From a virus: 64,000 nucleotides of DNA. The notes under the pieces were generated by a model. It ran no database searches. It saw only the letters and a list, made by a program, of their open reading frames with translations, and was not told the origin of the DNA. The stretch lies in the UHGV virus genome UHGV-0128973. The stretch is one strand, 5' to 3'. Both the position numbers and the translations under genes were made by a program. Positions 22,168 through 29,799 of this stretch are shown here, piece by piece (positions within the stretch are counted from its first letter, which is position 1; every line of letters begins with the position of its first letter).

Positions 22168-22674
22168 TTGAGTATTTTCAATAAACACGCACACCAGGAA
22201 CGTCCGTATATCGTCATAGTTGATATTGATGGAACAATATCAGAGGCAACTGAAGACAGACTGCATTTGCTTCCGCCACCAGGTAAAGGTGCATTAACAA
22301 AGGACTGGAACGAGTTTAATCTCGCCTGTGACACCGATACTCCCATCACTCCAGTTATTGATATGGTGCGCCAGTTATTTAACGTTTACACGGTCTGGTT
22401 TGTAACCGGGCGCTGTGAGATCGCAAGGGATAAAACACGAGCCTGGCTGCGGAAGTACGTAACAAACGGGGCTGAGCCTTTGCTATCTATGCGTCCTGCC
22501 ACCGATGACAGAAATGACGGCCCAGCAAAGATTGATCTCCTTAAGAAAATTGGTCTAAGTAAAATCGCGTTCGCGCTGGAAGATAAGATTGAAGTGGCGC
22601 GTGTTTTCAGGAGGCACGGCGTGCTTACGTTAATGGTCAGGGAGTATGAAAATGCGCTTCTTCATCAACAATGA
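22168..22674 (+). CDS. HAD-superfamily phosphatase-like protein
   Basis: IVIVDIDGTIS motif (HAD motif I) near N-terminus; TTG start after RBS GAGGAGG. Confidence 0.45.
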   Translation: MSIFNKHAHQERPYIVIVDIDGTISEATEDRLHLLPPPGKGALTKDWNEFNLACDTDTPITPVIDMVRQLFNVYTVWFVTGRCEIARDKTRAWLRKYVTNGAEPLLSMRPATDDRNDGPAKIDLLKKIGLSKIAFALEDKIEVARVFRRHGVLTLMVREYENALLHQQ

Positions 22675-22690
22675 TTGCTCTAATAAATCT
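22674..22690 (+). promoter_or_regulatory. C1 operator-like site (ATTGCTCTAATAAATCT)
   Basis: 16/17 match, overlapping stop codon of upstream gene. Confidence 0.6.
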
Positions 22691-22868
22691 TGATTTTTAA
22701 AACAGAGAAAGTGAAAATAAAAACATGCCGCAAGGCGCGGCATGTATCCAATCAATCACAGGAGCTGAAAATATGAACACGGCATTCAAAATCATTATGG
22801 CCGCGATCTATTTCTGGCTGTTCTCTATCACTTTTGGCGGCATCGTCGCACATGGGTAAGGGGGATGC

Positions 22869-23597
22869 ATGAAAGGCGAAGTGAAAGAGCGCGGCATGAT
22901 TTTCAACGATGAGATGGTCCGGGCCATCCTCGAAGGAAGGAAAACGCAGACGCGGCGGATAATGAAAAATCAGCCTGCGGAAGTTGGTCCAGAAGCACCA
23001 GTGATGGTTAGAAAAATTGGTGCAGGTTTTCAGTGGTACGGGGCTGATGGTGTAAGCAGTGTTTTCAATTGCCCATTTGGTATCGTCGGCGATCGAATTT
23101 GGGTTCGTGAAACATGGGCGATATTAGGCAATGAGGATGGTTGCAGTGTGGACTGGAACGACAACCTTTGTCGTGGCGATGAGAAGAACGCAGCAAGGAT
23201 TTATCGGGCCAGTTGCGAGCAAAAACCTGGTGATTACGGCTTATGGTCGATACCCGATGATGCCGACTGGAAACCTCACACTGTGAATGAAAAGTTTGAT
23301 GGTGGGTGGCGTCCATCAATTCACATGCCGCGATGGGCATCACGCATTCTGTTGGAAATTACCAACGTGCGCGTTGAACGGTTGAACGATATCAGCGAAT
23401 GCGATGCAAGGGCTGAGGGCGTTCCGCCTGCTGGAAGTTTGCTTCCTGATCACCCGGGAACATTCCTTACTCCCAAGGGGGATTTCGCAATGGCCAAGGT
23501 TGCGTTCCAGCGCCTGTGGGAATCCATCTATGGTGAAGAAAGCTGGAACGCTAATCCCTGGGTGTGGGTAATCGAGTTTAAGCGCATTCAGGAATAA
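22869..23597 (+). CDS. ASCH-like (PUA-fold) domain protein
   Basis: MIFNDEMVRAILEGRKTQTRR N-terminal signature common to prophage ASCH-type proteins. Confidence 0.4.
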   Translation: MKGEVKERGMIFNDEMVRAILEGRKTQTRRIMKNQPAEVGPEAPVMVRKIGAGFQWYGADGVSSVFNCPFGIVGDRIWVRETWAILGNEDGCSVDWNDNLCRGDEKNAARIYRASCEQKPGDYGLWSIPDDADWKPHTVNEKFDGGWRPSIHMPRWASRILLEITNVRVERLNDISECDARAEGVPPAGSLLPDHPGTFLTPKGDFAMAKVAFQRLWESIYGEESWNANPWVWVIEFKRIQE

Positions 23598-23600
23598 ACC

Positions 23601-24479
23601 GTGAGTATGCATCAAGTCGTCAGCTTTTCAGGTGGACGAACATCGGCTTATCTCGTTCATCTGATGGAAGCACAGCGAAAAGCTGGCGCTAGCGTCCATT
23701 TCATTTTTATGGATACCGGCTGTGAACATCCTCTGACGTATCGCTTTATTCGTGAGGTTGTGAAGTTCTGGAACGTACCGCTAACGGTGTTGCAGGTCGA
23801 TATAAATCCAGAACTTGGGCAGCCAAATGGTTATACGGAATGGGAACCAAAGGATATTCAGACGCGAATGCCGGTGCTTAAACCGTTTATGGACATGGTT
23901 AAAAAGTACGGTACGCCATACATCGGCGGCGCGTTCTGTACCGACAGGCTAAAACTCACCCCTTTCACGAAATATTGCGATGACCATTTTGGGCGAGGGA
24001 ATTACATCACATGGCTCGGTATTCGTGCGGACGAACCCCGTAGGCTGAAACCGAAACCGGGCGTCCGGTATCTTGCCGAACTGTCAGATTTTGATAAGTC
24101 GGATGTTATCCGGTGGTGGCGAAAACAACCTTTTGATTTGCAAATCCCGGAGCACCTCGGGAACTGTGTTTTTTGCATCAAAAAGTCAACGCAAAAGCTG
24201 GGGCTTGCATGTAAAGACGAACCAGGTCTGATGCGGGTTTTTAATGAACTGGTTACAGGCAAACACGTCAGGGATGGTCATCGCAGAACAGGTAAAGACG
24301 TTATGTACCGTGGCCACCTGACGCTTGACGGGATTGCCAGAATGTATGCCGACAGTGACTACAGAAATTTGTATCAGGCGATGGTGCTGGCCAAGCGGTT
24401 TGATACTGGTTCGTGTTCCGAATCATGTGAAATCTGGGGTGACCAATTGGAGTTGAAATTCGAAGAGGTAGTGGAATGA
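23601..24479 (+). CDS. PAPS-reductase-like PP-loop ATPase family protein
   Basis: VVSFSGGRTSAYL PP-loop motif; 292 aa. Confidence 0.65.
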   Translation: MSMHQVVSFSGGRTSAYLVHLMEAQRKAGASVHFIFMDTGCEHPLTYRFIREVVKFWNVPLTVLQVDINPELGQPNGYTEWEPKDIQTRMPVLKPFMDMVKKYGTPYIGGAFCTDRLKLTPFTKYCDDHFGRGNYITWLGIRADEPRRLKPKPGVRYLAELSDFDKSDVIRWWRKQPFDLQIPEHLGNCVFCIKKSTQKLGLACKDEPGLMRVFNELVTGKHVRDGHRRTGKDVMYRGHLTLDGIARMYADSDYRNLYQAMVLAKRFDTGSCSESCEIWGDQLELKFEEVVE

Positions 24480-28071: not shown

Positions 28072-28077
28072 ATTTAT

Positions 28078-28452
28078 ATGATGACACTAAAACATTTTCT
28101 TGACCGCCCATTATGGGCGGCAGCCGCAGGCTATGACTTTAATTATATGGATTGCATGTCTTATACCGCCAATGCATACGACCATTCCTTCAGTCTGCTG
28201 TTTAATTCTTTAAGAATATTGCCGCAAACAGAAGTTGGAGAGCTTCATTTATGGCTATTGGGCTTTATCGCGGCTGTCGTTGGTATTGCTATATGGCCTT
28301 TTATTTTCTGGCTGGTGGCTGTTGTAGTGTGGTTTAAGTGCAAGACATACCGGAAAAAGTATTTCTTAGGTGATGGAATGACTGATATTGCCAAAATGAA
28401 CATTGAAAAATGGACTAAGGAATGTGAAAAGAAATGGCGCAAAAAGAAATGA
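28078..28452 (+). CDS. Membrane protein (two TM helices), 124 aa
   Basis: LWLLGFIAAVVGIAIWPFIFWLVAVVVWF hydrophobic hairpin. Confidence 0.45.
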   Translation: MMTLKHFLDRPLWAAAAGYDFNYMDCMSYTANAYDHSFSLLFNSLRILPQTEVGELHLWLLGFIAAVVGIAIWPFIFWLVAVVVWFKCKTYRKKYFLGDGMTDIAKMNIEKWTKECEKKWRKKK

Positions 28453-29366
28453 CCCGAATCACTGAAGAGCGTATATCAGAGATTATTTCCCGTATCGAAA
28501 TGTATGGTCACGGTGCTGGATATACGGCAGATGAAGTATTGGCACTTGCCCAAATGGCTTTGGCGGCTTGCAAAGATGATAAAAAAATGAAGTTTATCGA
28601 CTTGTTAGTGGAGGAACTGCCTAAGTGCGGCGGGTGGCCTGATGGAATGAGTTATTGTTACCTACCCAGTGTCAATTTAATGGCACCATGCGCGACTTTT
28701 GCTTTTGGCTCAGACCACAAAAAAGACACTTTCTTTGGGCGCAATTTTTGTTGTGAGATTGAGCTTCCAATTGGTGACCTTGATAGCGATGAATACCAGT
28801 CAGTTGTCACTCGCGAACAATACGAATCAGCTCTCATAGCGTCGCAGAAAGTCGAGTTCAATGGTGATGAACTTGAAAGTAAGACTTACAGGTTGGATTT
28901 TGGGCAATGGCTGGAACAGCAACGCGGGAAAATCGATGTGGACTGTGGTTGTGTGTCCACTGAAACATTCATGCACTGGCTGCGGGTAGCTTACGAGGCT
29001 GGCAACTATCCGGATATTCCGGATAGTTCGGTGCCAGCACCAGGAAAGGGCGTCACCGGTGAACGTATCCGAATTAAGCCGCATGTTTATCGCGAACTGG
29101 TTAACCGTCTCCACGATACAGCGATCAAGTGTGCTGGCACCCAGCAATTACGAGAAAGAATTAGCCGTGTTTTGGGCGACGTTATTACACCAGATCATCA
29201 TAAACAAGCCGAGAAAAGTGGCCTGGAAAGGTGTCACCTTGAGGCGGCATTAAACATTAAGCCGGGGCATACGCTTGGCATTATTGATGCACTATTGGTT
29301 CATAAGATGGCCAGGGCTTTATTGCCGCTGGTGGATGCTGGCGATACAAGCGAGGGTGAAGTATGA
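28434..29366 (+). CDS. Hypothetical protein (310 aa)
   Basis: ORF geometry; Cys-rich central region. Confidence 0.45.
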   Translation: MAQKEMTRITEERISEIISRIEMYGHGAGYTADEVLALAQMALAACKDDKKMKFIDLLVEELPKCGGWPDGMSYCYLPSVNLMAPCATFAFGSDHKKDTFFGRNFCCEIELPIGDLDSDEYQSVVTREQYESALIASQKVEFNGDELESKTYRLDFGQWLEQQRGKIDVDCGCVSTETFMHWLRVAYEAGNYPDIPDSSVPAPGKGVTGERIRIKPHVYRELVNRLHDTAIKCAGTQQLRERISRVLGDVITPDHHKQAEKSGLERCHLEAALNIKPGHTLGIIDALLVHKMARALLPLVDAGDTSEGEV

Positions 29367-29725
29367 GAGTTGCAGATCACATCAAACACCTTGAAAGAAT
29401 TATCGAAAACGGTGAACTCTTAAGAGATCAGATGAGACGCACGGCAGAAGTCAGAGAGGCGATAATCCGCAGTCAGGCTGGTAAATTAAAGCAATTATCA
29501 GAGATTAACGCGCTATACAAGAACAGACGTAACCGGGCGGCGCTGCGGCTTCAGAAAGCACGTAATGAAATTAAATTGGTGGAGGCAAAACTGAAAAAAC
29601 AGATTCAGCGTTACGATCAGCAAGATGCTTTTTATGCCGCCATCAAGGCGGCTGCTAATGAAATAGGCATCTGGAAGTTGCTGGTGGAGAAAGCAAAGAC
29701 GAAGTTAAATGCCAACGAAAGCTGA
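29363..29725 (+). CDS. Hypothetical coiled-coil protein (120 aa)
   Basis: ORF overlapping upstream stop; charged helical sequence. Confidence 0.45.
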   Translation: MRVADHIKHLERIIENGELLRDQMRRTAEVREAIIRSQAGKLKQLSEINALYKNRRNRAALRLQKARNEIKLVEAKLKKQIQRYDQQDAFYAAIKAAANEIGIWKLLVEKAKTKLNANES

Positions 29726-29799
29726 ACTACAGATACCCACCAGCACATACAGAAAATGATTGTTTCCACATCAAGGAGGTTTTAATGTTTCACTGAACA

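Follow-up and report, generated by a model that had tools for sequence, protein, structure and literature searches.

The pmgT-humD segment is one of eight highly variable regions (variable region 8) in 77 surveyed P1-like phage-plasmids, and in JL22 pmgT is replaced by gene clusters that include an ea22-like gene (PMC9603915). In P1, pmgT, pmgU and pmgV form an operon that follows the C1 operator Op88 (OpmgT), and all three genes are non-essential (PMC10695390). In the GenBank record of P7, Op(hea) controls a "hea operon" that extends from Upf86.8 to Upf90.8 and includes an Ead-like protein. The accessory genes of the exo-xis ("ea") region of lambda and of the Shiga toxin (Stx) phages are expressed early, and one of them, ea22, favours lysogeny in both (PMC7093339, PMC10834534). 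High gene flow has also been documented in general in P1-like phage-plasmids (PMC10879196). Here we compare the locus at 22674-29760 of the virus genome UHGV-0128973 with these systems. The sequence that was analysed, which will be called the window, is a stretch of 64,000 nucleotides of a P1-like phage-plasmid with an exact loxP site at 37961-37994.

A first-pass annotation of the window had flagged this locus as a lambdoid-type block of accessory genes suggestive of inserted cargo. The block is mostly of housekeeping interest: it is an ordinary example, in the long form, of an accessory operon of the P1 family that is known to be hypervariable and non-essential, and not an unusual insertion. 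We hold with good confidence that it represents the P1-family Op88 accessory operon in its long form, in which a conserved operator and leader precede exchangeable lambdoid-type cargo and pmgV is the last gene. The most useful by-product of the comparison concerns the reference P1, whose pmgT seems to be a chimera produced by deletion and whose pmgU seems to be only part of a gene.

The Op88 operon, its operator and its leader

The window is collinear with canonical P1 from 1106 to 23563 (P1 62816-85182) and aligns with it again at 28991-30640 (P1 85182-86833) and at 30708-37977 (P1 87530-94800), with 97-99% identity in each segment (blastn vs NC_005856). The 5,427 bp at 23564-28990 have no counterpart in P1, where the two sides meet at the single coordinate 85182; the alignment, which the first-pass annotation had proposed as a check, found the block not to be collinear with canonical P1. 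That annotation had also thought the repA-to-loxP distance longer than in P1, and this is the case. From P1 coordinate 62816 to lox the window is longer by 4,887 bp, essentially all of which comes from the block (the block adds 5,427 bp and the surroundings of the tRNA genes ~90 bp, while the lxr region is shorter by 629 bp), so the longer distance is due to the 5,427-bp segment. The genes that flank the block are pmgS (20833-22095) and pap (22168-22674) upstream and hot (30365-30637) and humD (30761-31150) downstream.

The C1 operator that had been noticed from the sequence at first reading (ATTGCTCTAATAAATCT, 22674-22690, plus strand) opens the block; it overlaps the pap stop codon and has one mismatch to the C1 consensus. 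In the alignment this operator is identical to P1 Op88/OpmgT, which likewise overlaps the pap stop codon, and the same operator is annotated as a C1 operator in the records of both P1 (Op88/OpmgT) and P7 (Op(hea)). Sixteen C1-operator-like matches were observed in the window vs 0.31 expected by chance. The operator is followed by a leader of ~180 nt (22691-22868, plus strand) that contains a GC-rich hairpin (22723-22745) and has 98% mean identity across five elements (the window, P1, P7, vB_EcoM-813R1 and pUTME-12-1). The P1 annotation places the predicted promoters P1pmgT and P2pmgT within this leader. A scan of 22000-31200 against Rfam at E <=0.1 found no RNA family.

The leader also contains an unannotated open reading frame (ORF) for a hydrophobic peptide of 28 amino acids (MNTAFKIIMAAIYFWLFSITFGGIVAHG, 22773-22859, plus strand) with an AGGAG ribosome-binding site. 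This putative ORF is nearly invariant in P1, P7, 813R1 and pUTME-12-1, and in pUTME-12-1 its stop codon TAA is changed to GAA. An 84-nt piece of the leader (22780-22863) recurs with 98.8% identity in numerous large conjugative plasmids of the IncF type, as is also mentioned in the P1 record. In these plasmids, of which pZH193 (7001-14018) is one, the leader piece adjoins a type I cassette (hsdR-hsdS-hsdM) with phd-doc behind it, so a restriction-modification system is enclosed there by the same locus boundaries.

Downstream of the leader, ~15 ORFs (22869-29725), all of them on the plus strand, are spaced by -22 to +48 nt and include five 4-nt ATGA/GTGA overlaps of start and stop codons, which bears out the earlier description of a run of co-directional, often translationally coupled genes. 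Every ORF of at least 40 amino acids matches a PHROG phage protein family, nearly all of these families being of unknown function. A domain search confirmed the genes that had been called PAPS-reductase-like, Ead/Ea22-like (with a GTG start) and DUF551, as PAPS_reduct, Ead_Ea22 and DUF551 pass the Pfam thresholds. A consensus scan of the block gave 10 promoter-like and 7 terminator-like sites vs 12.7 and 8.4 expected from shuffles, and in this weak test no plus-strand promoter or terminator sites frame the genes. The tight packing, the overlaps and the lack of an excess of internal promoters and terminators suggest that the block is one transcription unit. The conserved last gene of the operon, pmgV (29363-29725), overlaps the preceding gene at ATGA and encodes a protein of 120 amino acids (phrog_4403) that is identical to P1 PmgV.

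The block therefore occupies the same position between pap and hot/humD as the Op88 pmgT-pmgU-pmgV operon of P1 and shares with it an identical operator, a leader with 98% identity and an identical PmgV. The P1 operon differs in that 5,427 bp are lost, pmgT is a chimera and pmgU is a fragment, and the hea operon of P7 differs in its cargo (Upf86.8-Upf90.8) and in the in-frame domain fusion Upf89.5. In an even sample of PLSDB matches, the span from pmgS to humD ranges from 4.4 kb (the P1 type) to ~12 kb and is mostly 8.5-11.9 kb, so the span of 9.2 kb in the window is of typical length. None of the records of phages, plasmids and complete E. coli genomes in the collections has the exact gene mosaic of the block. 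The best coverage of the 7,087-bp block was 67% among phages and 80% among E. coli genomes, and that of a wider 9.2-kb query was 84% among plasmids; the divergent part is at 24.9-27.3 kb.

The 5,427-bp segment and the P1 join

The P1 join at 85182 has at most 1-2 nt of microhomology, and both ends of the 5,427-bp segment lie inside genes. The left breakpoint is codon 232 of the first gene of the operon (22869-23597, plus strand), which in the window encodes an intact ASCH-fold protein of 242 amino acids. P1 PmgT (309 amino acids) consists of residues 1-231 of this protein followed by 78 out-of-frame residues from the downstream gene. The C-terminal sequence W231-V-W-V..F237 (WVWVIEF) is invariant in homologues from Escherichia, Klebsiella, Citrobacter, Pantoea and Edwardsiella and forms the last confident beta-strand of the structure model, a strand that P1 PmgT lacks. 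The right breakpoint is inside a gene (28434-29366, plus strand) that encodes an intact protein of 310 amino acids in the window, and P1 PmgU is the C-terminal 111 residues of this protein. The P7 protein Upf89.5 shares the C-terminal module of the 310-residue protein with 98% identity from residue 148, which is upstream of the P1 breakpoint. Over the 376 nt shared by P1, P7 and the window, changed codons are 20 synonymous vs 7 non-synonymous in the frame of the 310-residue protein and 5 synonymous vs 22 non-synonymous in the frame of the PmgT tail, a pattern that points to purifying selection on the former frame and none on the latter.

When 121-nt probes were compared with PLSDB, full-length matches to the P1 junction were found in 5 plasmids, to the intact left junction in 106 and to the intact right-breakpoint sequence in 278. 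Each breakpoint interrupts a gene that the window and most natural P1-like plasmids have in intact form; canonical P1 is therefore the deletion form, with pmgT apparently a deletion chimera and pmgU a gene fragment. As the P1 junction is also present in wild isolates, the deletion is not a laboratory artefact. No earlier description of pmgT and pmgU as deletion products was found in the literature searched, the scope of which did not include the P1 genome paper (Lobocka 2004).

Other, independent deletion chimeras from the same operon were found in the protein database among homologues of window 22869-24479. One of these (P0003) is a fusion of the ASCH-like gene with the gene for the 310-residue protein, with a junction (NPWVWV|FRIVRC) that is unlike that of P1. 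A second (P0131, 20 contigs) has residues 1-229 of the NinC-like protein that is described below fused in frame to the DUF551 domain, and in a third (P0200) the C-terminal half of that protein follows a foreign N-terminus. The P7 protein Upf89.5 consists of the first ~300 residues of the DUF551-type protein and the last 163 of the 310-residue protein, joined at the short common motif SQ(S)KTY(K/R)L. The genes for the two large modular proteins of the window contain, between them, three copies of a motif that codes for a linker (GGCTGGCAACTnTCCGG; peptide G-N-S/Y-P-v-I/T-P; 26261-26303, 26807-26849 and 28997-29039), the last of which is only 6 nt away from the P1 breakpoint.

These results bear on the naming of the first gene. 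The ASCH-like family has at least 8000 members, typically of 224-260 amino acids, and homologues in Klebsiella, Kluyvera and other genera carry the name "morphogenetic protein". This label has apparently spread from the "putative morphogenetic function" of P1 pmgT. As P1 pmgT is a non-essential deletion chimera, the label on thousands of homologues is not to be trusted.

Lambdoid counterparts of the cargo genes

The second gene of the operon (23601-24479, with a likely ATG start at 23607) encodes a protein that is 80% identical to lambda NinC over 285/290 residues. The Ead/Ea22-like gene (24908-25594) has a GTG start that overlaps the upstream stop codon (GTGA), and its product aligns with lambda Ea22 along the entire length at 60% identity (BLASTP E 5e-85), the domains at both termini being nearly the same in the two proteins, and has an Ead_Ea22 Pfam score of 59.7 bits vs a cutoff of 27. 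Between these two genes are orf67 (24476-24679; phrog_1226 over its full length), which has an ATGA overlap with the upstream gene, and orf79 (24672-24911; phrog_1344 over its full length). Both small proteins have syntenic counterparts in the Stx-type phage Ss-VASD, that of orf67 being the hypothetical gene after the PAPS reductase gene. The Ead/Ea22-like gene is followed by orf49 (25596-25745; phrog_1997), of which a chromosomal lambdoid prophage has an identical copy (100%), by the gene for a modular protein of 424 amino acids (25749-27023; phrog_60 and others) with a C-terminal DUF551 domain (Pfam, residues 363-421) and ~300 N-terminal residues that have their homologue in P7 Upf89.5, and by orf86 (27020-27280; ATGA overlap; phrog_2814 over its full length), the last element of the part that is common to the block and Stx phages. 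All of these genes are on the plus strand.

In Ss-VASD the gene order (PAPS-reductase-like, two small ORFs, Ead/Ea22, a small ORF and DUF551) is that of the block, and the string occupies the exo-xis region, with the recombination genes on one side and xis-int on the other. In Klebsiella prophages, homologues of the ASCH-like gene also lie in this early-left region, flanked by kil at one end and by a TraR-like gene, an xis-like gene and int at the other. In lambda itself ninC lies in the nin region between ninB and ninD, whereas its homologue in the window is in the Op88 operon; in Stx-type phages the NinC-like gene is likewise in an ea-type region and not in the nin region. Additionally, a relative with 54% identity to the NinC-like protein is located between NinB and NinE in P22-like prophages.

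Across the exo-xis region of lambda and Stx phages, the block shares gene order and has ~93% nucleotide identity in pieces. It differs from that region in that it is part of a plasmid-prophage myovirus, follows a P1 C1 operator, has neither pL/N antitermination nor adjoining int/xis or recombination genes, and contains an extra AT-rich sub-block that is specific to P1-like elements. The possibility that the block is part of a pL operon next to int/xis and exo/bet was considered and set aside, as its flanks are P1 pap and hot and the operator in front of it is one for the P1 C1 repressor. The first-pass annotation was right that the genes are of lambdoid type, given the identities to NinC and Ea22 and the order in Ss-VASD. 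Its term "moron region" is the wrong class, because the lambdoid counterparts lie in early operons (exo-xis and nin) and are not autonomous units expressed in the lysogen, and the block is one operon behind a repressor operator.

Exchange of these genes between lambdoid prophages and P1-like elements can be followed at the nucleotide level. Window positions 25567-26840 (1.27 kb) are 100% identical in an att-lambda prophage of an E. coli chromosome, and pieces of the block are present in 3664 of the 5426 complete E. coli genomes, in 6692 chromosomal vs 1243 plasmid places. The locus is a clear, quantifiable case of recent gene flow between integrated lambdoid and plasmid prophages. Orthologues of ninC and ea22, two long-unexplained genes of lambda, are here placed behind the operator of another repressor, and this could be of use in tests of what they do. 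The ea region of the att-lambda prophage, which is that of E. coli strain 205, has near xis a pseudogene (12194-12475) for a hot-like DNA polymerase III theta subunit, and the same prophage has a DUF551 gene that is 100% identical to that of the window and is disrupted by IS2. Circulation between lambdoid ea regions and the pmgT-hot segment of P1 thus extends to hot-like genes.

The PAPS-reductase-like protein is, by its sequence, to be filed as a member of the NinC family and not as CysH. The motif S8xS10GGR13xS15 and the cysteines C113, C126, C189, C192, C272 and C276 are invariant in the NinC-like family. The structure model has a PAPS-reductase/PP-loop fold with a predicted local distance difference test (pLDDT) score of 86 in AlphaFold2 (AF2), and Foldseek relates it to the CysH/APS reductases 6vpu, 2goy and 1sur (E 2.7e-5, probability 1.0). 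Pfam PAPS_reduct covers residues 6-72 only. CysH is defined by a C-terminal catalytic ECGLH cysteine motif. An assignment as CysH, and with it as an auxiliary metabolic gene of sulfur assimilation, was rejected because the protein lacks ECGLH and scores 21.9 bits against the NCBIfam model PRK02090 vs a cutoff of 154 bits. NinC-like domains of the PAPS-reductase fold, with 51-55% identity, are fused to phage N6-adenine (Dam) methyltransferase in four proteins (P0213, P0226, P0235 and P0237) from Vibrio phage 44E38.1, Erwinia and metagenomic contigs.

For the first gene product, which had been called ASCH-like, the assignment holds at the level of the fold and not at that of sequence models. Structure comparison of the predicted model gives an ASCH beta-barrel fold with YqfB, THYN1 and YTH as neighbours. 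There is no ASCH match in Pfam or NCBIfam at E <=0.01, and sequence and profile searches of the PDB gave chance-level matches only. Compared with E. coli YqfB, an N4-acetylcytidine amidohydrolase, the protein of the window is ~2x the size and has a low-confidence insertion of ~75 residues at 81-157. An obligate functional pair of the ASCH-like and NinC-like proteins was rejected, as in lambdoid prophages either can be present alone.

Possible functions and alternative explanations

The reading that we favour, that of a long-form Op88 operon with exchangeable cargo, suggests the following course of events. Lambdoid prophages in the same hosts would recombine with the operon so that its cargo is shuffled, and internal deletions would erode the cargo; one such deletion of 5.4 kb would have left canonical P1 with the chimeric ORF pmgT and the remnant pmgU. 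Judging from the operator sequence, C1 bound to Op88 would keep the operon silent in the plasmid prophage. Upon infection or induction the operon would, by analogy with the lambdoid exo-xis genes, be expressed early, from a single transcript and with coupled translation. It may supply dispensable functions, among them modulation of the lysis-lysogeny decision by the Ea22-like protein, if this resembles its lambdoid counterparts, as well as small membrane proteins and nucleic-acid-directed enzymes (the ASCH-fold protein and the PP-loop, Cys-rich NinC-like protein) as predicted from the structure models. We conjecture that the ASCH fold and the NinC-like features, namely the fold, the partial SspD match and the Dam methyltransferase fusions of some homologues, point to nucleic-acid-directed chemistry.

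Several points weigh against this reading. The consensus scan did not recover the promoters predicted by the P1 annotators, transcription across 7 kb in the absence of internal signals is assumed, and the AT-rich sub-block could be under regulation of its own. The polarity of the deletion rests on gene integrity and frequency and not on a rooted phylogeny. In the literature searched, no established function was found for NinC or the ASCH-like protein, and NinC received passing mentions only.

It is possible, though unlikely, that the block is a defence or counter-defence island. According to this explanation, which overlaps with the favoured one and differs only in the function that is claimed, the ASCH-fold and NinC-like enzymes would either add or remove nucleic-acid modifications or counter restriction or abortive-infection systems of the host at an early stage of infection, and exclusion would be the task of the small membrane proteins. 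As the first-pass annotation had proposed, a defence-system predictor (PADLOC) was run on the 17 candidate proteins of the block. The NinC-like protein gave a partial match to SspD (E 1.8e-13) and weak matches to DndC and BrxP. The fusion of some NinC-like homologues to phage Dam methyltransferase, the recognition of modified bases by ASCH/PUA-like folds such as the structural neighbours YqfB, THYN1 and YTH, the hsdRSM cassette that IncF plasmids enclose within the same locus boundaries, and the early expression that would be expected behind a repressor operator are all consistent with such a role. However, PADLOC found no complete defence system among these proteins and 16 of the 17 had no match, no genes for the SspA/B/C or DndA/B/D/E partners are present, and in other genomes the ASCH-like gene is not regularly found next to the NinC-like gene. 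A bolder form of the idea, which we regard as distinctly improbable, is that the Op88 operon is an exchangeable early host-takeover and counter-defence cassette in which the ASCH-fold and NinC-like proteins act on nucleic-acid modifications. If this were true, it would provide the first function for lambda NinC, and decades of work on laboratory P1 would have been done on a natural deletion mutant of this cassette.

The AT-rich part of the block raises a separate question. The GC content is 0.398 at 27400-28600 vs 0.47 in the whole block and 0.48 in the flanks, which agrees with the AT-richness that had been noted for 27.6-28.4 kb; the AT-rich stretch is ~1.2 kb long. Within it, a sub-block at 27366-28452 with a GC content of 0.33-0.42 contains orf77 (27366-27599), the hydrophobic orf40 (27648-27770), orf97 (27778-28071) and the membrane protein orf124 (28078-28452; 124 amino acids), which match PHROGs 3876, 5525, 1258 and 2638. 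The sub-block is preceded by orf34 (27259-27363), a putative ORF for a possible hydrophobic peptide with a maximum hydropathy of 1.98, for which there is no PHROG match and no annotation in the related records examined. All five are on the plus strand. The two small hydrophobic peptides of the first-pass annotation, orf34 and orf40, are indeed hydrophobic, but its two-transmembrane protein, orf124, has a single hydrophobic stretch of ~31 residues, interrupted by a proline, that would make one or two membrane spans. Only 16 homologue clusters of orf124, narrow and unnamed, were found among 5.8 billion proteins. Apart from a weak match to phiKO2, DNA of the sub-block was found in P1-like phages only. 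The AT-rich part thus belongs specifically to P1-like elements and is not lambdoid.

With this composition, which is unlike that of the flanks, the narrow, lineage-specific distribution of the sub-block and the 48-nt intergenic gap before orf40, the AT-rich genes for small membrane proteins at 27.3-28.5 kb might be true morons that are expressed in the lysogen from their own promoters and serve, for example, in superinfection exclusion. We consider this highly unlikely, as no plus-strand promoter- or terminator-like sites are found around the sub-block, the site counts are below shuffle expectation, and the orientation and tight spacing of the genes are those of the rest of the operon.

Least probable of all, and close to untenable, is the insertion of a lambdoid cargo island into an ancestral P1-like backbone in this lineage with P1 as the uninterrupted state, which the first-pass annotation had suggested and which would account for the absence of the 5,427 bp from P1 and for the 93-100% identity of much of the segment to lambdoid prophages, but which would need the chance supply of both the invariant C-terminal strand of the ASCH-like protein and an in-frame N-terminus of 185 amino acids for the PmgU frame, and which is at odds with a P1 PmgT tail that evolves as non-coding sequence would, with a P1 junction in 5 plasmids vs intact sequence in 106-278, and with segment edges that have no transposase, no att-like sites and no flanking direct repeats, a direct-repeat search having found only the thrice-repeated linker motif.

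Three features outside the block also distinguish the element from P1 or lie next to the operon. At 30640-30708, ~68 bp stand in place of the lxr region of P1 (P1 86833-87530, ~700 bp), and the LexA-regulated lxr gene is consequently absent from the element. Everything to the left of 1106, including an ORF for a RepA-like protein of 294 amino acids (15-899, minus strand), has no nucleotide match to the repA/incA region of P1 and may be an alternative p0111-type replicon as described in PMC9603915. Directly downstream of pmgV, an ORF for a very hydrophobic peptide of 45 amino acids (29800-29937, minus strand) has no match in PHROG, Pfam or PADLOC, and a hypothetical protein is annotated at the equivalent position and on the same strand in pUTME-12-1.

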